From positions 20,162-84,161 of the IMG/VR virus record IMGVR_UViG_3300019776_000583: a stretch of DNA of 64,000 bases. One strand, given 5' to 3'. A model generated the notes under the pieces. It saw only the letters and a program-made list of their open reading frames with translations. It was not told the origin of the DNA and ran no database searches. This DNA is from a virus (taxonomy: Duplodnaviria > Heunggongvirae > Uroviricota > Caudoviricetes). Shown here piece after piece: positions 1 through 48,401 of the stretch. Made by a program: the position numbers and the translations under genes. How positions within the stretch are numbered: the stretch's first letter is position 1; every line of letters begins with the position of its first letter.

Positions 1-369
1 CAGACCGCCTACAAGGCAGCCTCGCTCGAGGCCACCACACTTAAGAGGGAGAGAGAGCATGCAATCGCCGAAGCCATCGCCGAAGCCCGCAACCTGGAGC
101 GCCAGGCAGCGCTGGCCAACGAGGCGCGCCTGCGGTCTGCTGTTGCTGTCGAGCGCCGCGACGCTGAGCGGCTGCGGGCACAACTCGCCGATTCCCTCGG
201 TCGAGCCTGCAGCGCCACTGCAGATTCCGGGGCCGCCGGTGACGCAGCGGCCGCCGCCATCGGGGACGTACTGGCAGAAGCACTGCGAGTTCAGGCGCAG
301 CTTGCAGGAGCAGCTGAAGGTCACGCTGGAGAGGTCCGAGCACTGCTCGACGCCTGGCCAGGCAAGTGA
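1..369 (+). CDS. C-terminal part of a coiled-coil protein (5' end lies outside the window)
   Basis: Frame 1 is open from base 1 to the TGA at 367-369 with strong GC3 bias. Ala/Arg/Glu-rich heptad-like sequence (ERRDAERLRAQLADSL). Confidence 0.5.
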   Translation, partial: QTAYKAASLEATTLKREREHAIAEAIAEARNLERQAALANEARLRSAVAVERRDAERLRAQLADSLGRACSATADSGAAGDAAAAAIGDVLAEALRVQAQLAGAAEGHAGEVRALLDAWPGK

Positions 370-935
370 GGCGCAACCAGGTCAAGGGCGCCAAGAAGAT
401 CAAGCGTCGGGCCAGGCTGGCTCCACGCGCTGAGCGCCGGCATCTGCAGCGCCGCTCGAGGGCCTTCAACGAGCGCGCGCCGCATGCCCGGCGCTACGAC
501 CTGTGGCCTGGCGCGTGGATGACGGAGATGGCCGGCCACCCGTGGTCCCGCATCGAGCTGCGCATCGCGACCAACAGGTTCTGGATGCTGCGCGAGGCCT
601 GGCTGCTTGGCTCCGACGTTGCAAACGATGGCGCCACGCAGGGCTGCGTGATCAACAGGGTGAAATCCCACGTGCGTGGAATGTCGCGCCCGGCGCGAGG
701 AGAGCGCGGCAGAATCGCGACCGTCCTGCTCAACGAGGTCGACCTTCTGAGTCGCCCTTCGGAGATCGGGGCTCACGAGATGACGCACGCCGCGCTGCGC
801 TTCATGGACGTCCGCGGCATCAGGCTCACCGGAGGCATCATCGAAGAGGAGGCCCTCTGCTACACGGTGGGAGAGCTGGTGCGCCAGCTCAACAGCATCT
901 TCTACGCTCACAGCTACAGGCGGCCCAGCCGATGA
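366..935 (+). CDS. Hypothetical protein with an HExxH zinc-metallopeptidase motif (GAHEMTHAAL)
   Basis: Strong GC3 periodicity. GTG start overlaps the upstream stop (GTGA). HEMTH motif near the C-terminus. Confidence 0.5.
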   Translation: MRRNQVKGAKKIKRRARLAPRAERRHLQRRSRAFNERAPHARRYDLWPGAWMTEMAGHPWSRIELRIATNRFWMLREAWLLGSDVANDGATQGCVINRVKSHVRGMSRPARGERGRIATVLLNEVDLLSRPSEIGAHEMTHAALRFMDVRGIRLTGGIIEEEALCYTVGELVRQLNSIFYAHSYRRPSR

Positions 936-1354
936 CCACCATCACAGTCGACGCAGCGCTCGGCATCATGTGCGCCGACTCACACTGGAGCGACGGCCTC
1001 GAGAAGGGCCCGATGCGCAAGGTGTGGCGCATCAACGGCGCGCTCGTTGGCTTCGCTGGGGCCCTCGATGCCATCGAGGCCACCAAGGCCTACCTGAAGG
1101 ATGGCTGCAACGGCAAGCCCCCACCCCAAGCCTGCGCCAGCGCCCTGCTGCTCGACGGGACCAAGGTCTGCACATGGACGCGCCTGGACGGATTCACGAC
1201 GGTCCCGGGCAGGTACGCAATAGGCTCAGGTGGCGCGGCCGCCCGGGCCGCACTCGAAGCCGGTGCCAGCGCCTCCAAGGCCCTGGCGATCGCCCGCAAC
1301 ATCGACGCAAGAACCAGCGGAAGGACGCGCGTGTACAAACTGAACACCAGCTGA
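932..1354 (+). CDS. HslV / proteasome-beta-like N-terminal-nucleophile (Thr) peptidase
   Basis: Begins MTTITVD, so Thr1 would be exposed after Met removal, as in HslV TTIV. GFAG and AIGSGGAAARAAL motifs align with HslV GFAGG and AIGSGG...ARAL. ATGA start/stop coupling with the upstream gene. Confidence 0.75.
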   Translation: MTTITVDAALGIMCADSHWSDGLEKGPMRKVWRINGALVGFAGALDAIEATKAYLKDGCNGKPPPQACASALLLDGTKVCTWTRLDGFTTVPGRYAIGSGGAAARAALEAGASASKALAIARNIDARTSGRTRVYKLNTS

Positions 1355-2535
1355 TGAATCCCATCGAAAGAATCGACCCCGGGCTCTTGCAGTTCGCGTC
1401 CGCGCGACAGATTGAGTTCATCGATGCGATCGAGAAGCACGGCTCACAGACTGCTGCAGCTCGCGCGCTGGGCCTGACTCGCAACACTATCTCCGAGTCG
1501 ATGGCCAGGCTGCGTGAGCGCGCAGCGAAGCAGGGCTACTCGCCCGAGCATGCCTGGAAGCAGCCGGTGCCCGACACGCACGTGGCCAAGGGCGTGTCCA
1601 CCTACTACGACGCCGATGGCAAGGTCCGCGGGCAGTGGGTGAAGGCTGACTTGAGGGCTGGTGAACAGCTGGCCGCCATGAGGTCCGCCGCCGCCGCGAT
1701 GGCAGAGGAGATCCCTCGCGCCTCCCCAATCGAGGGGCCGATCCCCACTGGCGACGAGCTACTGAACGTCTATGTGCTGACAGATGTGCACATCGGTGCT
1801 TTGTGCTGGGCCAAGGAGACCGGCGAGGACTGGGACCTGGCGATAGCCGAGCGGACCCTGTGGGGCTGCTTCGAGAAAATGATCGAGTCGGCGCCGGCTG
1901 CGCGCCACGCCTATGTGGCACAGCTCGGCGACTTCCTTCACAGCGACTCCATGAAGGCGCTGACGCCGGCGAGCGGGCACCTCCTCGATCAGGATGGCCG
2001 CTTCCCAAAGCTGGTGGCGGTGGCCATCCGCGTGTTGCGCCGCATCGTCAACCTGGCGCTCGCAAAGCACGAGCGGGTGACCGTGCTGATGGCGGACGCC
2101 AACCACGACCCGGTGTCTGGCATGTGGCTGCGCGCGATGTTCAGGGCGCTCTACGAGAACGAGCCCCGCATCGAGGTGGTCGACAGCGAGTTCCCCTACT
2201 ACGGGCACCAGCACGGCGAGACGATGGTCTGCTTCCATCACGGCCACCTGGCCAAGAAGGAGGCGCTGCCGCTGCTGTTCGCTACCGCCTTCTCGAAGAT
2301 CTGGGGCGCCACCAAACATCGCGTGGTGCATGTTGGGCACATGCACCACACCGATGAAAAGGAGCACAACGGGATGACCGTGTTCCAGCACCCGACGATC
2401 GCCGCCAAGGACGCCTACGCGGCCCGCGGCGGGTGGCTCGCTCAGCGCGCGGCAAATTGCGTGACCTATCACAAGAAGCATGGAGAGGTGTCGCGGATCA
2501 AGGTGAGGCCGGAGATGCTGGAGACCGCGCTTTGA
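1354..2535 (+). CDS. HTH-domain plus calcineurin-like metallophosphoesterase fusion protein
   Basis: ATG overlaps the upstream stop (TGATG). N-terminal HTH (SQTAAARALGLTRNTISESMARLRE). Metallophosphoesterase motifs LTDVHIG, GDFLHSD, ANHD, HHGH, GHMHH. Confidence 0.75.
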   Translation: MNPIERIDPGLLQFASARQIEFIDAIEKHGSQTAAARALGLTRNTISESMARLRERAAKQGYSPEHAWKQPVPDTHVAKGVSTYYDADGKVRGQWVKADLRAGEQLAAMRSAAAAMAEEIPRASPIEGPIPTGDELLNVYVLTDVHIGALCWAKETGEDWDLAIAERTLWGCFEKMIESAPAARHAYVAQLGDFLHSDSMKALTPASGHLLDQDGRFPKLVAVAIRVLRRIVNLALAKHERVTVLMADANHDPVSGMWLRAMFRALYENEPRIEVVDSEFPYYGHQHGETMVCFHHGHLAKKEALPLLFATAFSKIWGATKHRVVHVGHMHHTDEKEHNGMTVFQHPTIAAKDAYAARGGWLAQRAANCVTYHKKHGEVSRIKVRPEMLETAL

Positions 2536-2781
2536 CGGTCATCATCTATGCGCACTACAGGCCTTGCGCGCAGCTCCGCAGGTTCGCCGAGCGTGGCGCT
2601 CCCCTTCAGTCGGAGGAGACCAGGCGGAAGCGGGCAGAGAGTGCTCGCATCTCCTGGATCGCGAGGCGGGCGTCGAGCGGGGGCTCGGCCGCCTGATCCG
2701 CGTTCGCGGGTGGCGCAGCCCCGCGGGTGTGGCTATGTTCGCGCGTCAAATCCCGCACTGCGTGCTTCACCGAAGGGCCCC

Positions 2782-2955
2782 ATGGCTGCCACCACATCCG
2801 ACATGATCGACAAGGGCTCGAAGGCCTACGAGAAGGCCTGGGACGAGGCCCCGAAGGAGTTCGAGGCCTGCAAGGGTTGCAAGACCCCCGGCTACTGCAA
2901 AGAGCAGGGCTGCCAATCGAAAGAGGCCGCCACGATGAAGAAGATGGTGGGCTGA
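2782..2955 (+). CDS. Small Cys-rich protein (57 aa; CKGCKTPGYCKEQGC)
   Basis: Clean GC3 periodicity only from this ATG onward. The upstream part of listed ORF 2548..2955 lacks coding bias. Confidence 0.5.
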   Translation: MAATTSDMIDKGSKAYEKAWDEAPKEFEACKGCKTPGYCKEQGCQSKEAATMKKMVG

Positions 2956-2956
2956 A

Positions 2957-3466
2957 GTGGGCTTCCTGAAGAAGCTGAGGAATGCGGTCGGCGGGGTGGT
3001 CTCCAAGCTACCCGGCGGCTCCCAGATCCAGAAGGTGGTGGGCAAGGACCCGATCGCCCAGTCCATCATGAAGGTGGACCCTCTGGCTCGAGACATGGCC
3101 GGCGCTGCCGGCCTCATCGCGCCGGGCCAGGCTGCCGACCCCGCCCAGGCTCCAGTCAGGACGGGCTTCCAACCTCCAACGTCTCGCAATGCCGGCTGGC
3201 AGGGTGAGCGCGTCGCTGCGCTTCGAGCGCGGTTTGCAAGGCCTGGCGCCGCGCCAGTTGGAGCGGCTCCTGTGGGCGTCGCCCCGGTCGCGGCCGCCCC
3301 GGTGAGCGCCACGCCCCCTCCTGTTGCGACTGGCGCCGGCGTGACCGCAGCACCCGCCATTTCTCCGCCTTCCGTGGCAGCGCCCGCATCGGTCCCCATG
3401 AACCCCGCGCAACAGGACATCGACACGTACTCGTATGCCTGGGACCGCGCGAACAACACGTACTGA
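2957..3466 (+). CDS. Hypothetical Pro/Ala-rich protein with AAPVG repeats
   Basis: GTG start 1 nt after the upstream stop. Coding GC3 bias. Repetitive AAPVGAAPVGVAPVAAAPV segment. Confidence 0.45.
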   Translation: MGFLKKLRNAVGGVVSKLPGGSQIQKVVGKDPIAQSIMKVDPLARDMAGAAGLIAPGQAADPAQAPVRTGFQPPTSRNAGWQGERVAALRARFARPGAAPVGAAPVGVAPVAAAPVSATPPPVATGAGVTAAPAISPPSVAAPASVPMNPAQQDIDTYSYAWDRANNTY

Positions 3467-3472
3467 GGACCA

Positions 3473-3853
3473 ATGGATCGCCAATTCACACCCGACGAGA
3501 TCGGCAACCCGAAGAAGACCATGGCTCGACGCATGGCCAACGCTGAGGATGAGCCGGTCGGTGGCCTGATCCCCTCGACTGAGAAGGACTCTGGTCAACG
3601 CCAATTCCTCTACGGCCCCAAGCGCAAGCCCAAGAGCAAGGAAGAGGAGGATCGGAAGCGGGGTGATCTCGAGCGGCTCATACGGAAGCGCGACGAGGAC
3701 ATGAAGAACTCGCAATCCGACTTCGAGAAGGAGTTCTCCAAGGACTCCGAGGCGCCCCTGACGGACGCTGTTGTGGCCTCCAGAAAGGCCGCTACGCGGC
3801 CCGCCGAAGAGTCGGATGAAGAGTACGTGGACGCATACCAGGCTGAGGCCTGA
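3473..3853 (+). CDS. Hypothetical highly charged protein (KRKPKSKEEEDRKRGDLERL)
   Basis: GAGGA Shine-Dalgarno 5 nt upstream of the ATG. Strong GC3 bias. Confidence 0.6.
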   Translation: MDRQFTPDEIGNPKKTMARRMANAEDEPVGGLIPSTEKDSGQRQFLYGPKRKPKSKEEEDRKRGDLERLIRKRDEDMKNSQSDFEKEFSKDSEAPLTDAVVASRKAATRPAEESDEEYVDAYQAEA

Positions 3854-3868
3854 GCCGAAGGAAAAGAC

Positions 3869-5941
3869 ATGCTGAAAAAAGTTGGAAACGACGTCGCAGA
3901 AGCCGTTGTTCTTGTCGACCCGATAACTGGCGAGGCCTACGCCGCCAGTGGTGGTGGTGGCGGTGGTGGCAGTGGCGGCAGCGTCACCCTGCCTGGCGTG
4001 AGCGGAACCACCGCTCAGGCGGTTCAAGGCATCTCCGGCGGCGTGGCCATGCCTGTCAGCAACACCAGCCTGGCCAACATTGACATCGACCTTGGCACCC
4101 CTTCGGATGCTGCTGCAACCACCGACGCCGGAGCGTTCTCTCTGATTTCGCTGGTCAAGCGGGCGCTGCAGAACTGGACGTCTCTCCTGGCTCGGCTGCC
4201 GTCTGCGTTGACGGCCGTCCCCAGCCCGGACCAGGCCGCCCAGCCGATGCGGATCGTGGGCCAAAACGCCACCGGCGCTGGCTTCAGCGCGGTTGGCGCA
4301 TCGGTGATCGATAGCTTCTTCGTCCAGACGCCCGTCGTCACGGGCGGCGTCACGTACAACCAGGCAGCTGGCTCACTCAACGTGGTGGCAGGAACCACGG
4401 TCAACGCTGAGTTTCTGGCTCGCTCGGTGTCAGCGTTCAGGGGCTCTCTGCGCCAGAGATTCTCGCTCGTGGCGTCGCAGCGAATCGTCAACAACAACTT
4501 TGCAGTTTTGCTGGCCGACCTGATCGGCGAGTCCTTGAGTTTCACCATCAACTCGACGACATCCGTCACGGTCAACGTGCCGGGGAACACCTTCGATTCC
4601 ACGATGGTTGGTCAGTTCGTCAACATCGGCGGCATCGTCAGTGCGGCGGCCGCCGTGCCGGGCCGCTACGCGGTCGCCAGCGTAGTGACTGGGGTGAGCA
4701 TCACCTTCACCGTGGCTGGCTACCCTGCGACTGGCACTGGCACTTGCACGCTGTTCGGCCGCAACTACGTGCGACACCTCGTCACCGGCGCCACAGCCAC
4801 CGCGCTCAACGTCGACGCCCAGCGCAACGGATGGGCGACTGGTGATACCGCCGCCGTCATCAACACCACCGCCGCCCCCGGCACGGTTGTGCAGACTGAG
4901 TTGACCGGACGCGAGGTGTTCTTCTCCGACTCGCTGAGGGCTTCCAGTACCGCGCCCAGCTTCGTCACCAGGGCATCGAGATACGAAAACATCCCCGATC
5001 AGTCGATCGACCTGTACGTGTTCCTCTGGAACTTCAACGGCACAGTCGCGCCGGCGAGCTCGAGCACGTTCTCTATGGCCCACCTATCGGTCGAGAACTT
5101 TGCGAACCTGCCGGTTTACATCCAGGGGGCGCGATCGATGGGCCAGCAGAATGCACTTCCGGTGCAGCTGCAGGCGGGGGCCAACAGCATCGGCTCGATT
5201 GGCACCGTGACCACGGTCACCGGCGTCACGACCGTCTCAACGGTCACGACGGTTGGGTCGGTGACGGCAGCCAACCTGAACATTCCCGGCATCATCGCTG
5301 ACGTGGCCTCGGCCGCACTGACCGCATCTGCCACAACGGCCGCGTTCACGCCGACGTTTGGGCCGAGCTACGAGGTCAACATTCCCGTCACCGCAGTCAC
5401 GGGAACCCTACCCACCCTGGATGTCGGCATCGAGGAGTCGGACGACAGCGGGACCAACTGGTTCAGGGTGTACGACTTCCCGCGCATCACGGCGACAGGC
5501 ATCTACCGCAGCCCGAAGCTGGCACTGACCGGCAACCGCGTGCGCTACGTGCAGACGGTCGGCGGCACGACGCCGTCATTTACCCGGGCCGTGAACCGCC
5601 TGCAGTCCAGCGACCGCGGGCAGAACATCCGGCAGTTGGTTGACCGCACCGTGGCTCTGGCAACGCTGACCAGCGCCACGCCGGCGCTCAACGTCCAGAA
5701 CAGCACCAACCTGCAACTTCAGGTCAACATCGGAGCCGCCAGCACGGCCCCGTCTCTTCAGATCCAGGGTTCTGACGATGGCGGGGCAAGCTGGTACAGC
5801 ATCGGAGCTCCGTTGGCTGCCGTCGCCTCCAGCACCGTTTCGCTGACCGTCAACAACGTGCAGGCCCAGCAGTCCCGGGCCATTGTCTCGACTGCTGGCA
5901 CTGGCGTGACTTCTGGCTATGTTCTGTTGAAAGCATTCTGA
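3869..5941 (+). CDS. Virion structural protein, fibre-like (Gly/Thr/Ser/Val-rich, 690 aa)
   Basis: GAAGGA Shine-Dalgarno. Poly-Gly (GGGGGGGSGG) near the N-terminus. VTTVTGVTTVSTVTTVG repeat. Composition typical of tail or head fibres. Confidence 0.6.
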   Translation: MLKKVGNDVAEAVVLVDPITGEAYAASGGGGGGGSGGSVTLPGVSGTTAQAVQGISGGVAMPVSNTSLANIDIDLGTPSDAAATTDAGAFSLISLVKRALQNWTSLLARLPSALTAVPSPDQAAQPMRIVGQNATGAGFSAVGASVIDSFFVQTPVVTGGVTYNQAAGSLNVVAGTTVNAEFLARSVSAFRGSLRQRFSLVASQRIVNNNFAVLLADLIGESLSFTINSTTSVTVNVPGNTFDSTMVGQFVNIGGIVSAAAAVPGRYAVASVVTGVSITFTVAGYPATGTGTCTLFGRNYVRHLVTGATATALNVDAQRNGWATGDTAAVINTTAAPGTVVQTELTGREVFFSDSLRASSTAPSFVTRASRYENIPDQSIDLYVFLWNFNGTVAPASSSTFSMAHLSVENFANLPVYIQGARSMGQQNALPVQLQAGANSIGSIGTVTTVTGVTTVSTVTTVGSVTAANLNIPGIIADVASAALTASATTAAFTPTFGPSYEVNIPVTAVTGTLPTLDVGIEESDDSGTNWFRVYDFPRITATGIYRSPKLALTGNRVRYVQTVGGTTPSFTRAVNRLQSSDRGQNIRQLVDRTVALATLTSATPALNVQNSTNLQLQVNIGAASTAPSLQIQGSDDGGASWYSIGAPLAAVASSTVSLTVNNVQAQQSRAIVSTAGTGVTSGYVLLKAF

Positions 5942-5973
5942 ACGTGAGACGCAAGGGCCACCAGGAGTAGACC

Positions 5974-6288
5974 ATGTCACGCAACTACGACGCATCACAA
6001 GTAGGCAGGCCCTACGTCAGGGTCCCTTCGATCCAGATCAAGTACCCGTCCCCGCTGCATGCCACTGTCACCTTTCAGGAGGTGGAGGCTGTCGTTCTGC
6101 AGGATGGCTCGGTGCGCCAGATCGGCGATCTGGGCGAGCGCAGCTTCAGCGTCGACCCCGGTGACATGGACGATGTCCTCCAGCTCCGAGACCCGACGAC
6201 GGGGAACGTCATCCCTGGCGCCACGATGACGGTCCAGCAGCTGATGCTCGGAATGCTTGCGATCATCCGCCGCGAGCAGACGAAGTGA
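5974..6288 (+). CDS. Hypothetical protein (104 aa)
   Basis: AGGAG Shine-Dalgarno. GC3 bias. Confidence 0.6.
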   Translation: MSRNYDASQVGRPYVRVPSIQIKYPSPLHATVTFQEVEAVVLQDGSVRQIGDLGERSFSVDPGDMDDVLQLRDPTTGNVIPGATMTVQQLMLGMLAIIRREQTK

Positions 6289-6761
6289 AGATCGCGCACT
6301 ACGTCGGCCGACACGCGAACGACGGCCTGTCGGCGCGCCTTGGGTGGGCCATTGTCCGCGCCGTGCAGCGCGGCGAGTTCAAGCGCGTCACGCACGTCGA
6401 GTCGATCATCGATGAGCATGAAGACGGCTCCGTGACGATCGCAAGCTCAAGCCTGCGAGACGGCGGCGTGCGCGCCAAGCGCGTGCGACTCACGCCCGGC
6501 GCCTGGATCATCGCCGACGTGCCGCAGTGGGACCGCAGCGCGGCAAAGGAATTGCTCGCCGCGACCGCGGGCCGCCCCTACGACACCCTCGGTGCTGTCG
6601 CCACCGTCATGCCGACCCGCCAGAACAGCGCCCAGTACTTCTGCAGCGAGTGGGTTGGCGCGCCGTACCTGCGCAGCGCCCACATCTTTGGCCCGGCCCA
6701 GCTGGCGGCGCTGACTTTCAGCATAGGCCGCGACGTGACGGCCGAGTTCTTCGGGGCCTGA
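6285..6761 (+). CDS. Hypothetical protein (158 aa)
   Basis: GTG start overlaps the upstream stop (GTGA). GC3 bias. Confidence 0.5.
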   Translation: MKIAHYVGRHANDGLSARLGWAIVRAVQRGEFKRVTHVESIIDEHEDGSVTIASSSLRDGGVRAKRVRLTPGAWIIADVPQWDRSAAKELLAATAGRPYDTLGAVATVMPTRQNSAQYFCSEWVGAPYLRSAHIFGPAQLAALTFSIGRDVTAEFFGA

Positions 6762-6766
6762 GAAGC

Positions 6767-8359
6767 ATGGCATCACCCAACTCAGACATCTACTCGTCGG
6801 CGACCGCCCCCGTGTACGGAGGCAGGACCGCCTCCGCGCCGGCGCCGAGTCCCTCGCCATCGCCGAGCCCGTCTCCGTCTCCTTCACCGTCTCCTTCGCC
6901 GTCTCCGTCGCCTTCGCCTTCGCCGTCACCGAGCCCATCTCCGTCGCCTGCAATCGTGCTGTCTGCGACTGGGAACGCCACGGTCGGCGTCGCGTACACC
7001 ATCACGGCCACTGCCTCCAACCTGACGGCCGGCCTCGTTGGCACTCCAGAGAACGTCACTGGAAGCGCGACCTTCAGCCCCACGACGATCAACCCGGCTC
7101 CAGGCGAACTCAGCAAGCTCTTCAGCGCCACCTACGCCTCCGCTGGAAGCGCATCGGTGCGCGTGACAGCACCTGGCGTGGTGAGCAACACGCTATCGAT
7201 CACCGTCGTGGCAGCCCCGACCCCAGCGCCCGCCCCGGCCCCAGCTCCGGCGCCAGCCCCGTCGACATCGGCTCCGGCCGTGGCCACCGGAGGCACTGTG
7301 CTTGTGTCGGCCACTGCGGCTGGCACCGGCTGGACCAAGCTGTCGCAGTCAGCGTCCGGGACCCTGAACACCGCAGCCGACATCGTGAACCCGTCGCAAC
7401 ACTCCGGAGCTGTGTGGGACAACGCCCGCTCCAGGATGTGGATGGTGGGCGCCGAGACGCACTCGTACGTGGACTTTGGCATGACCAACAGCCCGTACTA
7501 CTGGGACGCCATCACGGGTCAGTTTGGCCGCATGCACGACCACGACCTGAGCGCCAACTACAGAGTGAGCGCGGATGGCATCTGGTATGGAAATTCAGCA
7601 AAGACCCGGCCCCCAGCGCTGCACGTCTACAACCGCATCCGCATGAACGCAGCGGGGAGCCTTGAGCTTTCCTACCCTGCCCAAGATCACCTGTACGTGA
7701 CCCCGATCCTGGAGGGCTCGATCACCGGGCCGAACGCGAAGACCCCGTTCTGGACCTACAACCCGTCGACAGGCCTCTGGAGCAACGACGGGTCTCCTGG
7801 CGACACATCGGCGTGGGCGAACAACGGTAACTCGTTCTGCGGAACCGAGTACGTCTCCGGGTTTGGTTGGGTGACCGCTGAGGACGTTCGCGTCCGCGTG
7901 CTGTCGGACTCTCGGGTCATGACGACGACCAGCGTGTCGGGTCTGACGCCGGGCCCGGTTCACAACAAGATCCTGCCGATCTCGGGTAGTCGCGTCGTCG
8001 CCATGCTCACCGGCGGAAACACGACTCTATGCGTGATTCATCCGCTGCTGAACCTGGCCACCACCACATCGCGCCTGGTGGCCTCGTACCCGGCCCTGGC
8101 CAACCATGATGTGACCTCCTGCGGCTCATGCCTGATGCCGGACGGGCGGATTCTGTTCACGGCTCGGAACTCAGCGGGGCGCTTTGTCGCATTCATCTTC
8201 GACGTGGATGCGAACACCGTGACATCGACCGGGCACACCATTCCCGCTGAGCACCCCGGATACCAGTGGAAGTTTGTGTGGGCCACTTCGCTGAACTGTG
8301 CGCTGTTGTACACGCTGGACGCCTCCAATGTTGCTGCGGTTTGGTCGCTCAAGCTCTAA
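6767..8359 (+). CDS. Tail fibre / receptor-binding protein with (Ser-Pro)24 and (Ala-Pro)n linkers
   Basis: ATG 6 nt after the upstream stop. About 48 aa of perfect SP repeat, then an APAPAPAPAP stretch, then a globular C-terminal domain. Confidence 0.65.
   Translation: MASPNSDIYSSATAPVYGGRTASAPAPSPSPSPSPSPSPSPSPSPSPSPSPSPSPSPSPSPAIVLSATGNATVGVAYTITATASNLTAGLVGTPENVTGSATFSPTTINPAPGELSKLFSATYASAGSASVRVTAPGVVSNTLSITVVAAPTPAPAPAPAPAPAPSTSAPAVATGGTVLVSATAAGTGWTKLSQSASGTLNTAADIVNPSQHSGAVWDNARSRMWMVGAETHSYVDFGMTNSPYYWDAITGQFGRMHDHDLSANYRVSADGIWYGNSAKTRPPALHVYNRIRMNAAGSLELSYPAQDHLYVTPILEGSITGPNAKTPFWTYNPSTGLWSNDGSPGDTSAWANNGNSFCGTEYVSGFGWVTAEDVRVRVLSDSRVMTTTSVSGLTPGPVHNKILPISGSRVVAMLTGGNTTLCVIHPLLNLATTTSRLVASYPALANHDVTSCGSCLMPDGRILFTARNSAGRFVAFIFDVDANTVTSTGHTIPAEHPGYQWKFVWATSLNCALLYTLDASNVAAVWSLKL
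6847..6950 (+). repeat. Hexanucleotide (TCGCCG)n tandem repeat encoding (Ser-Pro)n
   Basis: Visible perfect tandem repeat in the DNA and in the translation. Confidence 0.9.
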
Positions 8360-8377
8360 GGATCAAGGAAAGACAAC

Positions 8378-10654
8378 ATGACCATCACCCTCGGCTTCGA
8401 CGCCCAGACCCCCGAGCAGATCAGTTTCTACTGCACCCCCACGCGCACGATCGCGGCCGACACGAAGGTCACCGTCGAGTACAAGCAGTCGGGCACATCG
8501 ACGTGGAAGACAGGCCACCCGTTGCTGCGAATCACGCCCTCGTACTCAGTGACGAGTGGGCCGGTCGCCCTGGTCGACTCCTGGGCCGGTGTGATCTTCG
8601 ATCTGACGCCAGGCACAACCTACGACGTGCGGCTCACGGTCATCGAGCCAGGGCAAGCCAACGTCGTCATCACCGGAACGCGAGCGACCCGGGCGCTGCC
8701 TGCTGCGGCTGGCGCGACGACCAAGACGGCGACCACTGCGGACAACCTGCAGACCAAGTTTGACTCGCTGCTGCCGGGTGACGTGTTGATGCTGGCGAAT
8801 GGTGTCTACGACTGGTCATCGCAGCCAATTCCGCTGCGCATGCAGGTTGCCGGAACGGAAGCGAACCCGATCTACATTCGTGGCACATCGAAGCTGGGCA
8901 CTGTCATCAAGCGCACCACCGGCTTCGTGACGCAGATGCTTGCCACGGGTAACGTCATCTTTGAAGACCTGACCATCGAAGGGTCGAGCAGTGACTCCGG
9001 CACTGACGCGCAAAGCATTGGCGTGAGCTTCTGGAACGGCGCACCCGGGCAGCCGAACTGCACCTTCCGCAGAATTCTTTTCAAAGGCCTTGACCAAGGG
9101 ATTATTTCGTTCGGAGGTGTCAACGGATGCTTGGTCTACGAGTGCGAGTTCCAGGGGAACAACCCGTGGTCGAAGAGCTACGAGATCAATCCCGCGTCGG
9201 ACATGTTCAATTACACATGGAACGACGACGGCATCTCGCTGCCGGGGTTGGGTAACGCCGCGTGGAACAACACGCTGAACGGTTTCGGCGACGCCTTTTC
9301 CGTGAAGCAGGAGGTCTTCTCTGCTGCGGTGTACTTCTACCGCAACCACGTCAAGATGACGGGCGACGACGCTTGCGAGGGGGATTACGCAACCCGCAAC
9401 TTCGGCTTCTACGACAACTACATCACCAACGCTGGAACGCTGTTCTCCAGCGACCCGATCTATGGTGGCCCGACCTACGTCTTCCGTAACATCGGCATCA
9501 ACATCTGGCGCGGCCCGTTCAAGCTGAACACCACGGGTGGCGGCTTGCTGATGTATTCCAACACCATCATCAAGACCAAGACGCCAGGCGAGAATGCCGG
9601 CTGGTATCTGTCTGGGAATGGTGGGGCCACGAACTTGCGCCAGTGGGCCTACGTCAACAACCTTCTGATCTATCGCGATGCTGGGGTGACGCCGACGATC
9701 TGGCTTGAGCAGGTTGGCAACACACCCATCGACTTCACGAACAACGGCTGGTTCCCAGACAACACCAGCGCCGCCACATTCAAGTGGAATGTCGGCGGGA
9801 ACTTTGGGACGGTCGCCGCAGCTGCCGCTGGAATTGCGGTCACCACCCCAGTGTTCGGCACTTCAGTTCGCCGGCACACAGGTGACGTGGCCGCAGTCAC
9901 GGACCCGTTCGCCACCGACATCGCGATCAGCTCCAACTACCAGACGGCATTTGTCGGCACCCCATCAGTCGCGCTGTCGACAGGCACCACGGTGTCTAAC
10001 GCGGGGGCCGTGATCCCTGGCATCACGGACGGCTTCAGCGGTGCTGCACCTGACATCGGCGCCGCGATCTCTGGCCGCGCCGCAATCACCTACGGCGTCT
10101 CATCGCCAACCGCGGGCACTGCGCCGACCATCACGGTCCAACCCTCCAGCCAGTCCGTGACCGCTGGCGCAACGGCGACGTTCTCGGTGGTGGCCACAGG
10201 GTCGTCGTTGACGTACCAGTGGCGCCTCAATGGCGCGAACATCAGCGGCGCCACTTCGAGCAGCTACACGACCGCGGCGACGGCCCTGTCCGATAGCGGG
10301 CGCGTCTACAGCGTTGTTGTGACGGGTGACACGGCACCGGCCGCGACATCGTCCAACGCCACCCTGACGGTCACGTCCGGAGGCGGTGGCGGTGGCGGCG
10401 CAGCCGGCACGATGACTCTCGGCCCGTTCGGGCTCAACACCGGCAGCGGCCCGCTGCTAGGGACTGCGGTCTCCTACACGCTGACGTCGGGCGAGGTTGG
10501 CTCCGCGAGCGGCACACCGATCAACGGCACCGGGACGCTCAACGCATCCACGGGCCTGCTGTCGATCACGGGCCTCTCCGCCGGCGTGTACTCGGTCCAG
10601 GTCAAGAACGCAGACGGCACGGGCCGCTGGCACGACGTGGTGACGGTGTCCTGA
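8378..10654 (+). CDS. Tailspike / tail-fibre protein with a right-handed beta-helix (pectate-lyase-like) domain and a C-terminal Ig-like domain
   Basis: Shine-Dalgarno AAGGAAAG. Many Asn/Gly-rich beta-helix rungs (NNTLNGFGDAF, YDNYITNAG, FRNIGINIW). Ig-like segment ITVQPSSQSVTAGATATFSV...YQWRLNG. Poly-Gly linker. Confidence 0.7.
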   Translation: MTITLGFDAQTPEQISFYCTPTRTIAADTKVTVEYKQSGTSTWKTGHPLLRITPSYSVTSGPVALVDSWAGVIFDLTPGTTYDVRLTVIEPGQANVVITGTRATRALPAAAGATTKTATTADNLQTKFDSLLPGDVLMLANGVYDWSSQPIPLRMQVAGTEANPIYIRGTSKLGTVIKRTTGFVTQMLATGNVIFEDLTIEGSSSDSGTDAQSIGVSFWNGAPGQPNCTFRRILFKGLDQGIISFGGVNGCLVYECEFQGNNPWSKSYEINPASDMFNYTWNDDGISLPGLGNAAWNNTLNGFGDAFSVKQEVFSAAVYFYRNHVKMTGDDACEGDYATRNFGFYDNYITNAGTLFSSDPIYGGPTYVFRNIGINIWRGPFKLNTTGGGLLMYSNTIIKTKTPGENAGWYLSGNGGATNLRQWAYVNNLLIYRDAGVTPTIWLEQVGNTPIDFTNNGWFPDNTSAATFKWNVGGNFGTVAAAAAGIAVTTPVFGTSVRRHTGDVAAVTDPFATDIAISSNYQTAFVGTPSVALSTGTTVSNAGAVIPGITDGFSGAAPDIGAAISGRAAITYGVSSPTAGTAPTITVQPSSQSVTAGATATFSVVATGSSLTYQWRLNGANISGATSSSYTTAATALSDSGRVYSVVVTGDTAPAATSSNATLTVTSGGGGGGGAAGTMTLGPFGLNTGSGPLLGTAVSYTLTSGEVGSASGTPINGTGTLNASTGLLSITGLSAGVYSVQVKNADGTGRWHDVVTVS

Positions 10655-23366: not shown

Positions 23367-23876
23367 ATGTGGAGAGCGGAGAACAACAAGTCCGCAAGAG
23401 TCGAAGAGATGGATTGCTTTGGCTGGAGGGTGCACCGTCACGTGCTGCCGGTCGGGTCGTGCATGGTCGTTGTTGCGACTCACCAGATCGATCGATCGGA
23501 GGCTCCGAACAAGGCTCTCTATGTGAGGGGGCGTGGCGTCGTCACCAACAGCCTCGGCGGACAGTTCGACGACCGAACTCCGGGCCTGTTCACGGGGGCA
23601 AGGCCTGACCATCCGGCCGGAACAACAAGGATCCTTGCCGCCGAGGAGCTTGAGTTCTGGTGCTTCAACTGGCACGCGAACCGCGGCGCGCTGCCGGACG
23701 CTGAACCCCTGATCGCCATGAACGCGGAGCCGGTTGAACTGGCGGCCGGCCAGCGCGTCCTACTCTGCGCCGGCTCGCTTGGGCCGCACTCCGTTGGCCC
23801 TTTCGTTGCGACTGGCGAGCCGCTCGTGGCGGCCGGCGACGTGTACGGATTTCTGATTGGAGCGGATCGTGGGTAA
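23367..23876 (+). CDS. Hypothetical protein (169 aa)
   Basis: ORF with moderate GC3 bias. Start uncertain (TTG at 23349 or ATG at 23367). Confidence 0.4.
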   Translation: MWRAENNKSARVEEMDCFGWRVHRHVLPVGSCMVVVATHQIDRSEAPNKALYVRGRGVVTNSLGGQFDDRTPGLFTGARPDHPAGTTRILAAEELEFWCFNWHANRGALPDAEPLIAMNAEPVELAAGQRVLLCAGSLGPHSVGPFVATGEPLVAAGDVYGFLIGADRG

Positions 23877-23889
23877 GCAGCCTCTGTGG

Positions 23890-24603
23890 ATGATCTCTGT
23901 TGGCCACCTGGTGGGCCTGGCCGCCATCGTCGCCGGGCTGACTCTCGTCGCCACCGGAACCTCCAGCGCCTGGTGGCTACTCCTGTGGCCAGCGTTCCAT
24001 GTGCTGGGGTCGCTGATGCTGTCGGTTGGCCTGCACAGGTATTTCTCGCACGGCGCGTTCAAGACGACGAGTGCCTGGCACAACTTCATGGCCTTCTACA
24101 GCGTGCTGCTACTCAACGGCAGCCCGCACGGTTGGGCGGCGGCGCACAACACGCACCACGCGCACTCCGACACTGACCGCGACCCGCACATGGCCGGCTT
24201 GAGCTACCTGGCCTGGAAGCGCTACCGCGATGTCCCCATGGTGAGCCGAGGCGTGCGGCGCCTGGCCGGCGACAGGACGCTCGCATTTGTGCATCGCAAC
24301 GGCCTGTGGCTCTGGGTTGGATTCACGGCGTTGGCCCTGGCCATCTCCCCCGAGGCCTACCTATTTGGCTACCTGATGCCGCTTGGCAGCGTCCACCTGA
24401 TCGGTGCTCTTCACCAGGTCACGAGCCACTCCGGGGGATCTGCGCGCGACATCTGGTGGCTCGAGCTGCTGCTTCCGGCTTGCGGCGAGTGGCTTCACAA
24501 GACCCACCACGACCACCCAGGCCGAGCTGACTACCGCACGAAGTGGTGGCACCTGGACCTGGGCGCGCTCTTCATCAACGCGATTCGCACGGATAGGCGC
24601 TGA
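23890..24603 (+). CDS. Membrane fatty-acid desaturase / hydroxylase-superfamily protein (three His-boxes); candidate lysogenic-conversion moron
   Basis: Hydrophobic N-terminal helices. His-boxes HRYFSH (HxxxxH), HNTHHAH (HxxHH) and HKTHHDH (HxxHH). A GC-rich hairpin and promoter-like sequence lie downstream. Start uncertain: TTG 23857, GTG 23869 or ATG 23890. Confidence 0.65.
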   Translation: MISVGHLVGLAAIVAGLTLVATGTSSAWWLLLWPAFHVLGSLMLSVGLHRYFSHGAFKTTSAWHNFMAFYSVLLLNGSPHGWAAAHNTHHAHSDTDRDPHMAGLSYLAWKRYRDVPMVSRGVRRLAGDRTLAFVHRNGLWLWVGFTALALAISPEAYLFGYLMPLGSVHLIGALHQVTSHSGGSARDIWWLELLLPACGEWLHKTHHDHPGRADYRTKWWHLDLGALFINAIRTDRR

Positions 24604-28169: not shown

Positions 28170-31100
28170 ATGAAGAACAGCCTGACACCGTTCACCGCAG
28201 ATGACCTACTTGCCGCACCTCAATCCGGCCAGGCTTCTCAGCCGGAGAGCGGCACCGCTGCCATCTTCGATGCGCTGCTGTCGCAAGAGTCCGGCGGCCG
28301 GCAATTCGACAAGAATGGCGCCCCCATCACGAGCTCAGCTGGCGCCGTCGGCATCGCTCAGGTCATGGAGAAGACGGGGCCCGAGGCCGCTGCGCTGGCG
28401 GGCCTGCCGTGGGATCGGGATCGGTGGCAGCGCGACGCCGACTACAACAAGGCGATCGGCAACGCCTACTTTCAGAAGCAGCTGAACGAATTCGGAAACG
28501 TGCCTCAGGCGCTGGCTGCCTACAACGCAGGCCCTGGCGCGGTTCGGCGCGCGGTAGCACTTGCGCAGCGCGACGGCCAGCCGGACGCCTGGCTTGCAAA
28601 GCTGCCAGAGGAGACTCGAAGCTACGTGCCGGCCGTTCTGTCTCGTGCCGGCGTCCCGATGCCGGCCGGCGCAGCCGAGCCCGACAAGCAGTACTACGGC
28701 ACTCCGTCGAAGGAGTTCATCCCTCTCGCCTCCAGGAAGCCTGGAGCGACTGCCGGCGACTTCGTGCGCGAGTTCATCGCGTCTGGAGCCTCTGGCATTG
28801 GCTCGATCATTCAAGCTGGCGGAGAGGTGGCTGCAGCCGTGGCCAACAAGGTCAGCGGCACCAACGACTACGAGGGAAAGAACGTCTTCGCGGGGACTGC
28901 CGATTCACTGCGGCAGAACATGACGGAGGGCGGCCGAGCGGCCCTCGCAGACAGCAACATCGAGGGAAGCCTCGCCGACCTGTCTTTGGAGAAGCTGCCG
29001 AGCTCCCCCCAGGCCTGGGGGATGCTGACGGCAAACGTCCTTGGGTCATTGGCCTCGACGATGATCCCGATGGTCGGCCCGATGGCGCGCGTCGCATCTA
29101 CAGCCAAAGCTGGGGATGTTGCCCGCCTGGCATCCGCGTCTCGTACGGCAAAAGTGGCTGGCGCCGGATTCGGTGCTGCGCAGACCGGGGGCGCTGCTGC
29201 AGAAGAGGTTCGCAAGAGCGCCGAGAAGGCGATCTCCGGCATGACTCACGAGCAGCTGATGTCGTCAGTCCCGTCCTACGCTCAGGCGTTCGGCGAAACA
29301 GGCGACGAGGCTCAGGCAAGGTCTGCTGTTGTGAACTCCGCGGCGCAGCTCGCCGGCATGGGTGCGGCCGTGTTTGGTGCGGTCGGCGGCGCAGTCAACG
29401 CAAAGGTGATCGAAGACATCATCTTGAAGCAGGGCATCACGAAGATGCTCGGAAACAAGTTGCCGACGCGCCTCGCTGTTGGGGCCCCTGTTATTGGGAT
29501 GGCTGAAGGCGGGCAAGAGGTCTCCGAGAAGGTTGGGCAGAACATTGGTGAGGACCTGGGCCTCGGCCGAGATCCGATGGCTGACCCGCTGCGGGACACT
29601 GCTGGTGACTTCGTTGGCGGCATGATCGGCGGCAATGCTGTCGGCGGCGTTGCGGCGCTTCGGCGGCCTGAGATGGATCCCGTGGCGCGCAAGGCATCGG
29701 AGCCAAACAGCCCGTTGTCCAAGGCGGCAACTCAGGGTGTGATTGCCACCGATGCTGCGCCGCAGCCCGCGTCGCCAGCCCCCGTAGACCCGGCCCAGCG
29801 CCTGGCCGAGCTCGAGGCCATCGGCCAGCAGGGCGGCGTCTTCACGCCCGGGCAGCAGCAAGAATACGAGGCACTCAAGGGCGCCCGAGACGCTACCCCT
29901 GGCGCCGTGCCCGACGAGATCGGCCCGCGCGCCATGGCCGCTCGCGACGCCCTGCGCGTCGACCGCAGCCTGATGGATGCGCTGCGCGCAGACACCTCCC
30001 CCATCAAGCCCTCGGCCCTGCTGAAGGACCTGTCGATCGCCACTAGCAAGAGTGCTCAGCCCGCCATGCGCGAGCAGGCCCTGACGCGCGTCGAGATGGC
30101 AATGGAGTGGGCCAGAGCGAACCCGGCCCCGACGATCGAGACGGGGATCGAGGAGATCTCCGGCTTCTCCGGCGGCGAAGATCGCCCGACCGGCCCGCGG
30201 CCGACCGCGACTCAGCTGCGCGCCGGCGTCGACCGCGACGCCGAGCTGATTGGCCAGCGCGATGGCGGCCTGGCTAATCCGGCCGGCCAGCGCTCCCGCG
30301 ACGAGGCCGACCGCCGCGAGCAGGCCGCGATCGACATCGAGTCCGCGCCCAACGCTTCGCCCGAGGTGCTGGACCGCGCCGTAGCGCTGCGCCAGCAGGC
30401 CGCGAGCCTGCGCCGCCGGGCCGACGAGATGGACGCTCAGCCAGGCGCTGGCGGCACGTCTGGCGTTGGCTTTGCCCGCGACCGCGCCGGCATCGACGAG
30501 CAGCGCCAGGCAAACCTCGAGCGCAACATGCGCGCGCCGGCCGCTACGGCCGCTCCCGCCGCACCGGCGCCCGTCGCCGTCACAGCCACCGACCAGGCCC
30601 GCCTGGAGTCCGCAGCGCTGGCCGGCAAGGACGCCCAGCGCCGCGCTGAGGACAGCCCCCGCCAGGTCATCATCGACCGCGCGCTGCGCAACGTCGAGGA
30701 GCGCGGCGGCGTGGCCAGCCCGGCCGAGGCCCGAATCTTCCAGGAGGCCGGCGTCGGCAAGCCGTACGACCGCATCGACGAGAGCCTGGCCGGCGAGCCC
30801 TCGACCGACCAGCAGCTCACCGGCGCGACCGGCATCGCGCTGGGCCGCGCCCCGCGCGAGAGCTTGCGCCAGGGCCAGCAGTCCGAAGCCGACCTGATCG
30901 CCCGGGAGCAGCGCGACCGCAGCGACAGCCGCATGAAGGCTCTGGCCGCCGAGCGCGCCGCCACCCAGGCCGCACGCCCGGGCGAGAGGGCTGCAGCGCC
31001 GGCGCCCTCCGCCGACGACGTCATCGCCGCCCTGAAGACAATCCCGGCCCTCCGCACGGCCGAGCAGAAGTCGCTGGTCGACATCGCGCGCCGCAACTAC

Positions 31101-34100
31101 ACCGTCGAGCAGATGCGCGTCATGAACGATGCCGCCGTCAACCCGGCGAACCTGAGCGCGACCGACAAGTTGCAGCTGCAGCAGATCCGCAAGTCCGAGG
31201 AGCGTGACGCGGCGCTGCTGGCCCTGCCCGACGTCGCCATCCCGGCTGGCAATGGGCCCGCCTTCATCCGCAAGCGCAAGGCCCAGATCGAGGCCGCCGC
31301 TGCCCAGGGCTTCGAGACCGTTGAGCGCCGCGACGGCGTATTCGTGATTCGCAATTCGCGAACGGGCGCTGAGATGCGCCTGTCTGGCCGTGCCGACGCA
31401 GCGCTGGCCCGCGAGGCCATCCGCAAGATGGTCGACGAGCGAGCTCACGCCGCCGCCACCAGCCCGAAGAACGACCGCAAGGATCCCAGTTGGGCCCAGA
31501 TCGACGCGATCAACTGGAAGAAGGGTGACCCGATCCCATTGAACGGCGTGACCGTTCGCATCGAGAACCCCGTCGGCTCCATCCGCCGCGCACGCCCTGA
31601 TGCGCCGGTGCAGTGGAAGACCACGATGAAGCACCACTACGGCGAGATCGCCGGCACCAAGGGTGTCGACGGCGACCCGGTGGACGTCTTCGTGGGGCCG
31701 AACCCCGCAAGCCCGAAGATCTGGGTGATCGACCAGGTCACGGAGGGCGGCAAGCTCGACGAGCACAAGGTGATGTTCGGCTTCGACAGCGAGTCGGCCG
31801 CGCGCGCCGGCTACCTGTCGAACTTCAGCAGCGGCTGGAAGGGCCTGGGCAACATCACTGAGATGACCCAGGACGAGTTCCGCGCCTGGATCAAGGACCA
31901 GGGCGCCACGATGGCGCCGGCTGCCGAAGCCGCGCCGGCCCAGCAGGATGATGCTGAAAAGGCAACGACCGGCGCCGCAGAAGCGGCACCCGACATCGCC
32001 ACCGAAGTCGAGCCCGAATCCGGCTCGTTCACCGTCCGCATGGATGGCAAGAACGTGCGCTTCGAGCGCCGCGGTGTGGACGCGCTTGGAGAGACCGAGT
32101 CGCCTGAGCGAGACGGCAAGGCCACCCGCATCAGCAAGAAGTCTGCAGCACTCATCAAAGCCATCGCAAAGGCGCTGGGCAAGAAAGTCGTCTTCTTCGC
32201 TGACGTGAGCGGCGTGCGCCCTGGCGACGGCTTTGTGGTTCCGAACGAACCTAACACGATCTATTTGAATGAGATCTCAACGATCAGCCCTATGGCCGTC
32301 ATGGGCCATGAGTTCCTGCATACCCTTCGCCTGACCAACCCCAAGGCCTGGGACGCGATCGCGGCCGTCGTCAAGACCAGCGTGAAAGACCCCAAGGGAT
32401 TCCGCAAGGACTACTACGGCGCCGAGAAGGGCGAGAAGCGCGGAGACGGCGCGCTGAGCGAGGAGCAGGGCGGCGAGCTCGAGGAGCTGGTCTCCGACCT
32501 GGGTGGCAACCTGATGACCGACCCCAAGTTCTGGGAGGAGGTCTTCGCCAAGATCCGCGCCGACAACGGCAAGGACGCAAAGGGCATCATCGCCCGCCTG
32601 ATCGCGACGCTCCAGTCGATGATCGACAAGATCGCCGGCACGGTGAAGGGCCGGAAGTTCAAGGCCGACGACCCCGAGAATGGCTTCGTCACCGACCTCG
32701 ACTCCATCCGTGCGGCCTACCGCGACGGCCTGGCGGCCTACCTGCAGCAGAGCGGGGAGTCGAAGGCGGGCATGCAGGCGGAGGTGCTGAAGTCGCGGGG
32801 ACGCGTCGGATTCAGTGAGATTTCCAAGAAGTACCTGGAAGGCTGGCCGCCCGGCTTGCGCGTAGATTACCGCGGCACAGAGGCTTACTACGCAATCAAG
32901 CGATTGCCATACAACGACAACGCCAGCGCGCAGAAGGAGCTTGGCGTCAAGTTCAGTGGCGACATGATGGCGGACATCGGAGCTACCGTGGCGGCAGTTG
33001 CTGCGCGCGACGGATTCCCAGGACTTGATCGCGCACCTCGGATTCCCGTCTATAGCGCAATGCTCAGCGAGATGCAGCTGCGGCAGGCCGGTCGCGGCTA
33101 CATACAAGTTCTGCCCACCGTTGTGGATACAGAAAACGTAGAAACCCTCTACGTCAACTGGTCCAGCGGGTCCTCTGAAGATGAGGTTCGATCCGCCGCC
33201 AGGGCGGAGGCCGCCAACCAGCGCCTGAACAGGATCTTTTACGGGCCATCAAGCGGGGTTGTTTCAGGACTGGAGTCTGGCGCTGTATCGCGAGACCCGT
33301 CAGCCTGGGCGGAGGCGATGGCAACGGCACTCTCCGTGACGGCGCGAGCAACGCCCAAAAAGCAGTCGGCAGAGTGGGGGCGTTCATTTGGTGAGCGCAT
33401 GTGGTCCAGGATGCCTGACAAGTTCGTCGTGGGCGTCTTTGAGGATCTCGGCTCCGACCACCCCGACAAGAGAGCAGAGCTCGCCAAGTGGAGGGCCAGT
33501 GAGTCTGACCGCAAGGAGGCGGTGCGCGCAAATCGCGACTGGGAAAACCGCCCCCTGTACCAAAAGATCCTTGACGCCGTGCGCGGCACACGGGGCCCCG
33601 GATCTGACGAGGCACGCCGATCGCCAGAGCGCGGCATGACGGTCACCGGCTATCACTTTAGCCGCGAGCCTCGCAAGGCCCTGAGTTCAGCGACGCATGG
33701 CCAAGGTTTGCAGGACGCCAACCGCGAGCAGTTCCAGGACGCAGAAGACCAGCGCATTCGCCAGCGGATCTACTTCTACGTCGACAAGGGCACCGGCATC
33801 ACTCCGCTGCCAGGCCTTGGCACGCACGCTCACCGCACGAAGCTGTCTGGCGTGTACGACATGAACAAGGACGCGCTCGGCCTGAGGCGCGGGAAGTCTC
33901 TCGCGGACTTCGAGAGCTCTGTGCTGGACGCGGGGTACGATGGATACCTGGACCGCCGAGACGGCACGCAGCCTGGCGTCGTCATCATGCTGGGCAAGCG
34001 CTCGATCACCCCCGAGTACCTTGGAATGATGGGCTCGATCAAGGACGGTGAGAAGCTGCCTGGCGCAGTGGCCCCCGCGGTTGAGCGCCCCCCGATCTCC

Positions 34101-47139: not shown

Positions 47140-47146
47140 GGTTTCC

Positions 47147-47338
47147 TTACAGAAGAGGCTGAGAGGGGAGGTGGTTTGCCAACGCGACGAGGGACAGCAA
47201 GGCGGCCAGCAGGGCCCCGAGGGCGATGCCGTGCTTCGTAATGAAGCGGGCTGACGCCTTGCGCGTCTCGGGGTCGGAGGCTTGCCAGGCGGCGTAGCCG
47301 GCGACGATCAGGACGATGAGGACAAAGAGGTGCTTCAC
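47147..47338 (-). CDS. Small two-TM membrane protein (63 aa)
   Basis: Two hydrophobic helices (LFVLIVLIVAGYAAW, ALGALLAALLSLVAL). 8 nt upstream of the SPFH gene. Confidence 0.5.
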   Translation of the reverse strand: MKHLFVLIVLIVAGYAAWQASDPETRKASARFITKHGIALGALLAALLSLVALANHLPSQPLL

Positions 47339-47345
47339 ACTGGAC

Positions 47346-47555: not shown

Positions 47556-47559
47556 GACC

Positions 47560-48164: not shown

Positions 48165-48401
48165 AAGGTCCTTTCGAGGTGGTTGATAAAGAAAGCGGTC
48201 GCATCGTATCAGAGAAAGTTGGACGCGCAACAGAAAGTTATGCGTTTGTTTTCCTCTTCATCGAGAACAGTCGCCAGCAGTGACCGCAATGCCAGCTCTC
48301 TCGGGTTCTCTGCACACCGCCTGGGAGTGGGCGGTCTGCTTTGCACTTGGCGCAGAACTTCAAGGGCCCGGGCGCCGGCGCCGTTGGGGCCGGCGGGGCC
48401 A

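Follow-up and report, generated by a model that had tools for sequence, protein, structure and literature searches.

A minimal proteasome-like threonine hydrolase of the PPH family encoded in the late operon of an uncultured tailed phage

We analysed a 64-kb window (64,000 nucleotides; positions 20,162 to 84,161 of IMG/VR virus record IMGVR_UViG_3300019776_000583) of an 86-kb metagenomic scaffold from a tailed phage, focusing on a 140-amino-acid open reading frame (ORF) near the start of the window. Its product fits the PPH family, an already described group that corresponds approximately to PHROG 1040, and is not a new kind of protein; we refer to gene and protein as PPH. Very probably, PPH is a stripped-down ~140-residue N-terminal nucleophile (Ntn) hydrolase of the group that includes HslV and BPH (Betaproteobacteria proteasome homologue), working as an HslU-independent threonine peptidase or related amide-bond hydrolase and carried as an accessory gene.

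Profiles and fold place the protein in the PPH family

PHROG 1040, annotated as 'peptidase HslV family', was the one clear PHROGs match to PPH (E 1.3e-19). An AlphaFold model built from 23 homologues folded into a beta-sandwich (predicted local distance difference test (pLDDT) score 92, predicted template modelling (pTM) score 0.87), and the best PDB matches to this model in Foldseek were all HslV or 20S beta subunits (E from ~4e-7, template modelling (TM) score 0.72-0.78 on the query). Sequence searches against the PDB gained strength with the depth of the profile: PPH as a single sequence returned only a chance match to uridylate kinase, and a 23-sequence profile was marginal (HslV, E 0.004). 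A 100-sequence family profile aligned end to end with T. maritima HslV (E 6e-13), matched BPH over its C-terminal positions 58-139 (E 5e-12) and reached 20S beta5 at about 5e-10. Direct alignment of the family profile with E. coli HslV in hhalign gave 97.3% probability over 139 columns and paired Thr2, Asp16, Lys30, Gly40 and Ser99 of PPH with Thr1, Asp17, Lys33, Gly45 and Ser124 of mature HslV. These HslV, 20S beta and BPH profile matches, the fold match and the hhalign result uphold the identity proposed in the initial annotation, an HslV- or proteasome-like threonine protease. Some family members carry a precomputed PF00227 match, and JGI annotation calls family members HslVU peptidase subunit.

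An exhaustive hidden Markov model (HMM) search of 50%-identity clusters recovered 7,028 representatives at E ≤ 1e-3, of which 1,742 also reached E ≤ 1e-10. Almost all of the best 150 representatives were 135-150 amino acids long (median ~141) with a match beginning at residue 1, and 156 of 180 family sequences, also with a median length of 141 amino acids, started with MT. Searching 50,697 phage records by tblastn with either the PPH protein or the family consensus found nothing at E ≤ 1e-3, and megablast of the first 20 kb of the window gave no match; the clade is without a close cultured relative. A related-locus search of IMG/VR and GTDB genomes with the close-homologue alignment yielded nothing useful.

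The PPH family was described in 2021 by Fuchs, Alva and Lupas as proteins of ~140 residues without a propeptide, members of group I that radiate from BPH/HslV and lack helix H2, as in RPC; Caudovirales phages encode them, and their hosts carry copies derived from phages (PMC8665760). WP_042125023.1 is the representative of the published set. The protein studied here has 140 residues and an MTT start, a proteasome-like beta fold in which the Thr1/Asp/Lys set and oxyanion glycine align with HslV, and a single helix in place of H1 and H2, with mature HslV residues ~68-83 left unmatched. It is also of tailed-phage origin, with portal, major capsid protein (MCP), adaptor and integrase genes in the window and TerS and TerL genes just upstream. 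Size, lack of a propeptide, active site, missing H2, HslV/BPH-like affinity and tailed-phage setting are thus all shared with described PPH proteins. Nothing defining sets it apart; it differs in its source, a temperate, GP4-like podophage that is uncultured, and in its pairing within the clade with a helix-turn-helix (HTH) metallophosphoesterase.

BPH is likewise a stand-alone protein with no known unfoldase, and BPH and PPH are both HslV-derived (PMC5777263); however, BPH is a cellular protein of ~200 amino acids encoded in stress operons, it retains H2 and assembles into a tetradecamer, and its match to the PPH profile lies mainly over the C-terminal half. The best viral structure match was the 146-amino-acid 'Proteasome subunit beta' of Caulobacter phage CcrBL9 (E 1.3e-11, TM 0.82/0.79), and the 131-amino-acid 'Ntn hydrolase domain protein' of CcrColossus also matched (E 9.5e-8, TM 0.75/0.80). 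Both fall in the size class of PPH but share only 25-29% identity with it, and both belong to giant Caulobacter siphophages.

The gene is genuine and under purifying selection

The MTTITVD start and the GFAG and AIGSGG signatures reported by the initial annotation are present in the translation, GFAG at residues 40-43 and AIGSGG at residues 96-101. Codon-position GC content in the frame of PPH (0.59/0.59/0.84) matches the pattern of neighbouring genes. A long overlapping ORF that begins at position 970 is a 5' extension of the frame of the downstream gene, and over 970-1353 its GC pattern simply reflects the PPH frame, which identifies the PPH frame as the coding one. Comparison with an 84%-identical homologue gave a dN/dS of 0.20, and 31 close homologues (40-100% identity) were found in metagenomic assemblies. 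PPH is a genuine gene under purifying selection.

The stop codon of the upstream ORF, which encodes an HExxH-motif protein, overlaps the PPH start as ATGA, and the PPH stop overlaps the start of the downstream HTH-metallophosphoesterase gene as TGATG. Given these overlaps, translational coupling on both sides, as the initial annotation had put forward, is plausible. A promoter and terminator scan of window positions 1-4000 found no promoter-like site and a single terminator-like site on the minus strand, no more than shuffled sequence gives, which is consistent with a single operon.

A constrained active site suggests threonine-dependent chemistry

To follow the catalytic residues across the family, we used 166 members of at least 130 amino acids, drawn from close homologues and 50%-identity cluster representatives. 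Overall identity among aligned members was only ~30-35%. At this divergence, Lys30 and Gly43 were kept in all 166 members, Gly98 in 165, Asp16 in 163, Ser or Thr at position 99 in 155 and Asp125 in 151; Thr2 was found in 158, with Ser in its place in 3. The catalytic set is thus intact in PPH and strongly constrained across the family, and a constraint of this strength makes PPH almost certainly an enzyme. The Thr1/Lys33/Ser-Gly constellation, on whose loss in alignment the initial annotation would have withdrawn its proposal, is retained.

Position 99, the Ser of the GSG loop in PPH, varies. Thr occupies it in 40 of the 166 members and Gly in 6, including close clade members that read AIGGGG; a hydroxyl there would therefore not be strictly required.

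These residues suggest how the protein would work. PPH would be translated without a propeptide within the late operon, coupled to its neighbours, and host methionine aminopeptidase would remove Met1 to expose Thr as residue 1, since Thr in second position permits this cleavage and E. coli HslV, itself translated with an MTT start, undergoes the same maturation. The free amine and hydroxyl of Thr1, together with Lys30 and Asp16 as a triad, would then attack an amide bond, with stabilization by the Gly40/Gly43 backbone and an active site completed by the Gly98-Ser99-Gly100 loop, as in HslV.

Chemistry other than degradation was also considered: PPH might be an Ntn enzyme that works as a transpeptidase or ligase, like connectase, or as an amidase on a small molecule or modified protein. 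The proteasome-like superfamily does contain the ligase connectase (PMC8665760), the stand-alone relatives show no activity towards standard peptide substrates (PMC5777263), and loss of H2 may not allow a stacked-ring chamber (PMC8665760). However, the conserved residues of PPH are the classical proteolytic set of HslV and 20S beta, the nearest structural matches are proteases, and nothing specific indicates another reaction; we consider such chemistry unlikely.

Missing helix H2 argues against docking on HslU

PPH shares with HslV (ClpQ) the Ntn beta-sandwich, the MTT start, the Thr1/Asp17/Lys33/Gly45/Ser124 set and the GFAG and GSGG motifs, but it is not a true HslV. It is ~36 residues shorter, does not reach the thresholds of the HslV and Pfam Proteasome models and has no hslU neighbour. 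The hhalign comparison leaves a 9-residue loop and mature HslV residues ~68-83, which form helix H2, unmatched. Where HslV has helices H1 and H2, the PPH model has one helix, at residues 45-56, between strands 37-42 and 70-75. The pocket of HslV that receives the HslU C-terminal tail includes Phe54 and Phe57 of H1 and Ala79 and Lys80 of H2 (PMC6429459). Ala79 and Lys80 lie inside the segment deleted in PPH, and Phe54 and Phe57 align with Glu49 and Lys52.

A Walker-A scan and Pfam search of the 64-kb window, together with precomputed Pfam matches for the 10 kb upstream, found no AAA+ unfoldase and no hslU partner, in line with the initial annotation, which had described a stand-alone enzyme without an adjacent HslU. 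The Walker-A hits in the window were a dNMP kinase and a DnaC/IstB-like helicase loader; the remaining motifs, all incidental, fell in RdgC, a YqaJ exonuclease, a tail-tip protein and two proteins of 601 and 158 amino acids that had no Pfam match. With the H2 segment deleted and no AAA+ partner encoded nearby, the PPH enzyme would act without HslU.

Alternatively, PPH might replace HslV in function by docking on host HslU, so that ATP-dependent degradation is diverted in infected cells. HslU is usually present in proteobacterial hosts, and PPH has both full-length homology to HslV and a propeptide-free MTT start of the E. coli type. Yet the H2 segment with Ala79 and Lys80 is gone, Glu and Lys stand at the positions of Phe54 and Phe57, PPH reaches only 12 bits on the HslV equivalog model, whose cut-off is 137, and HslU co-occurred with PPH in no locus examined. 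Docking on HslU is accordingly very unlikely.

PPH behaves like a mobile accessory gene of late operons

In its own phage, PPH lies in a late operon with packaging, lysis and morphogenesis genes. The order runs from TerS through small genes to TerL, the inner-membrane spanin (i-spanin) with an overlapping lipobox ORF, the HExxH gene, PPH, the HTH-metallophosphoesterase gene and further small genes, and continues with tail and fibre-like genes, portal, a scaffold-like gene and MCP. Gene content indicates that the source is a temperate podophage distantly linked to Ralstonia phage GP4: the window carries a tyrosine integrase, a Gp77 fibre-tail adaptor domain, SU10-type adaptors, the portal, an MCP matching phrog_1357 and two giant polyvalent proteins. 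The integrase, followed by a recombination block (Table 1), marks the phage as temperate and equipped with a recombination module of its own.

Clade relatives carry PPH proteins that are 59-85% identical, and the metallophosphoesterase gene directly follows PPH in all 6 of 6 loci. Upstream, the arrangement varies. The HExxH gene directly precedes PPH in L001, the locus of the window, and in L003; L002 and L004 have shorter upstream ORFs (136 and 158 amino acids). L094 has the HExxH gene, then an unrelated 138-amino-acid gene and then PPH, and in L095 the spanin gene lies directly upstream of PPH, the interval from TerL to PPH lacking an HExxH gene. On the evidence of the L094 and L095 arrangements, we rejected the HExxH protein as an obligatory partner of PPH. 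The metallophosphoesterase was rejected as a general partner, given its presence in over 2,000 phage records and the lack of a PPH beside it in the two loci inspected, RcSalem and Pam1, both in the annotation and by six-frame HMM search; the pairing is therefore specific to this clade.

For a wider view, 80 IMG/VR loci and other fetched loci were reduced to 54 PPH clusters at 70% identity, and neighbouring ORFs were clustered and searched by cluster HMMs, with representatives named by PHROGs. A packaging, head, neck or lysis gene lay within 4 kb of PPH in 31 of the 54 loci, and no single neighbour family was present in more than 9. Several loci share a conserved module in the order scaffold, MCP, Ad1, Hc1, MuF, Neck1 and tail terminator. 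Five loci have PPH directly upstream of Ad1 and downstream of scaffold/MCP; three have it between Ad1 and Hc1, and one has it after Hc1. Elsewhere it directly follows an endolysin gene (two loci, with a third within 0.7 kb) or TerL (two loci), and other copies lie after a MuF-like gene or among small early-type genes downstream of DNA ligase. The nearest cultured phage by portal sequence, Pseudomonas phage Rollin (34% identity), has no PPH by six-frame HMM search of its whole genome. Variable positions within late modules and absence from Rollin give PPH the pattern of a mobile accessory gene of late operons and not that of a core morphogenesis gene.

One homologue was found outside any phage setting. 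A 149-amino-acid PPH protein (L009 8001-8450; ENA ERZ25070591, a 4.5-Mb contig) is encoded alone in a bacterial chromosome, flanked by GFO/IDH/MocA oxidoreductase and PAS-domain genes and with no phage genes within 8 kb. It recalls the chromosomal PPH genes of Pseudoalteromonas and Mesorhizobium described by Fuchs et al. (PMC8665760).

The same neighbourhoods bear on the suggestion of the initial annotation that PPH could be an unconventional prohead protease, acting in capsid maturation. The late genes found near PPH in 31 of 54 loci often place it directly beside MCP or head-tail adaptor genes, and the interval from portal to MCP in the window showed no recognisable canonical prohead protease. 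A gene of that kind would hold a fixed position in the head module and be present throughout the lineage, whereas PPH occupies three different junctions of one synteny (MCP|Ad1, Ad1|Hc1 and Hc1|MuF), follows endolysin or TerL elsewhere, occurs by DNA ligase or alone in a bacterial chromosome, and is missing from Rollin. In the window it lies ~10 kb upstream of portal, scaffold and MCP. Scaffold-using podophages of the T7, P22 and GP4 type are not known to need a protease. Variable position, absence from Rollin and non-structural contexts all disfavour a prohead protease, which we regard as quite improbable.

Weighing the assignment and its significance

Several points weigh against PPH as an HslU-independent threonine hydrolase of the HslV/BPH group. 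The family assignment rests on profile and fold evidence and not on curated thresholds: a Pfam search with the single PPH sequence gave no match, PF00227 (Proteasome) included, and the NCBIfam HslV model PRK05456 scored 12.3 bits against a cut-off of 137. Membership of PPH was assigned from the published description and PHROG 1040. A few members carry Gly in place of Ser99, and the unfoldase scan covered the 86-kb contig except for ~11 kb further upstream and ~2 kb downstream. No PPH is known to have enzymatic activity; literature searches for experimental work on phage HslV or PPH proteins returned only the bioinformatic study of 2021 and a genome note in which the automatic annotation is repeated. 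Among the stand-alone relatives, BPH and Anbu are inert in standard peptidase assays, and epoxomicin reacts with BPH (PMC5777263).

A truncated fold in a family without demonstrated activity might also suggest an HslV remnant that has lost catalysis and serves a structural or regulatory purpose, but with Lys30 and Gly43 invariant and Thr2 and Asp16 near-invariant at ~30-35% overall identity, and with a dN/dS of 0.20, this reading is barely credible.

What an active threonine hydrolase would cleave is a matter for more tentative proposals. One is a free-standing, ATPase-independent mini-proteasome, made late in infection, that cleaves a specific target, which might be a protein of host defence or stress response, a repressor or regulator of the phage, or one of the giant polyvalent ejected proteins. 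We hold this to be possible, if rather doubtful. If true, PPH would give the proteasome family its first viral enzyme whose role in infection is defined. A mobile accessory habit with no fixed protein partner speaks against both a prohead protease and a hijacker of HslU and points towards a specific substrate. The role in host takeover that the initial annotation had offered as an alternative is possible, with evidence neither for nor against it.

PPH is the only primarily viral branch of the proteasome family, and it is very large in metagenomes: the 1,742 clusters (50% identity, E ≤ 1e-10) compare with 324 sequences, non-redundant at 90%, in the 2021 survey (PMC8665760). The locus described here adds context and no new principle, and it is not a uniquely good entry point to PPH biochemistry. 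Biochemistry of any PPH would fill a real gap.

Neighbouring genes and wider features of the phage

Coordinates of PPH, its catalytic codons and other features are collected in Table 1.

Table 1 Features of the window and of its upstream flank (window coordinates unless a locus is named)
Feature	Coordinates	Strand	Description
TerL	L001 5234-8923		1,229 amino acids; just upstream of the window; ERZ28660116 scaffold_124
Rz-like i-spanin, 3' part	1..369	+	full 168-amino-acid gene, L001 8932-9438
Candidate outer-membrane spanin (o-spanin; Rz1-like lipoprotein)	59..433	+	start codon inside ORF; overlaps i-spanin out of frame
HExxH protein	366..935	+	putative small zinc-dependent hydrolase; 189 amino acids (possibly ~136, internal start)
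PPH	932..1354	+	minimal proteasome/HslV-like N-terminal-threonine hydrolase; 140 amino acids
PPH Thr2 codon	935-937		
PPH Asp16 codon	977-979		
PPH Lys30 codon	1019-1021		
PPH Gly40 codon	1049-1051		
PPH Gly43 codon	1058-1060		
PPH Ser99 codon	1226-1228		
PPH Asp125 codon	1304-1306		
HTH + calcineurin-like metallophosphoesterase/exonuclease	1354..2535	+	393 amino acids
Extra segment between metallophosphoesterase and portal	2957-10654		~8 kb
FA_desaturase-domain protein	23857-24603	+	248 amino acids
Giant protein	28170-37499	+	3,109 amino acids
Giant protein	38012-44629	+	2,205 amino acids
Tyrosine integrase	45016-46110	+	
Minus-strand block	46324-57000	-	

The HExxH protein belongs to PHROG 1365 (function unknown). 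Its motif, H137-E138-x-x-H141, and the pair E161-E162 are invariant in 14 homologues. An AlphaFold model reached a pLDDT of 73 and found no significant fold match in the PDB, the best, YbeY, not being significant. The N-terminal ~50 residues are rich in Arg and Lys and missing in some homologues, and the protein is a putative metallohydrolase restricted to the clade.

The metallophosphoesterase protein combines an N-terminal HTH (Pfam HTH_1, E 5e-7) with a match to PHROG 704 'DNA repair exonuclease' (E 1.7e-121). The motifs DVH, GD, ANHD, HHGH and GHMHH are readable in its sequence, which is ~51% identical to metallophosphoesterases of Rhodobacter phages. None of the three cassette proteins matched a PADLOC defence model.

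On the other side of the cassette, the i-spanin has an N-terminal transmembrane helix followed by a coiled coil, matches PHROG 312 'Rz-like spanin' and has a weak DUF2570 match. The translation of the o-spanin candidate, as read from its sequence alone, contains LLLLSSAATLSGC, a lipobox (LSGC), followed by a proline-rich segment. We identified no holin or endolysin gene adjoining the spanin pair; L095 has a CHAP endolysin gene upstream of TerS.

TerL of this phage has 1,229 amino acids against 507 in clade relatives, and BLAST against the L094 protein splits it into extein pieces at residues 1-162, 529-674 and 1004-1229. This split implies two inteins, one of them with a LAGLIDADG homing endonuclease domain; the first intein begins with Cys, and the second ends in HN and is followed by Thr.

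Further downstream, the window carries ~8 kb of extra sequence between the metallophosphoesterase and portal genes, where the 85%-related locus L094 has only three small ORFs (7687-8554). This extra segment encodes proteins of 690 and 758 amino acids (the latter with an Ig-like domain), an ORF of 467-610 amino acids and a 220-amino-acid Gp77-adaptor protein.

Two giant proteins look like polyvalent ejected virion proteins. The larger matches endolysin and lytic tail-fibre PHROGs at its N terminus, and DarB-like antirestriction and minor-head-protein families in an internal region; the smaller carries an LPD38 domain and three stretches of ART-PolyVal ADP-ribosyltransferase. Within the tail and structural block, a protein matching Pfam FA_desaturase (E 5e-8) may be the product of a moron or auxiliary metabolic gene. 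The minus-strand block that follows the integrase encodes SPFH/Band-7, dNMP kinase, RdgC, YqaJ-type exonuclease, ERF recombinase, NUMOD3 and HD-domain proteins.

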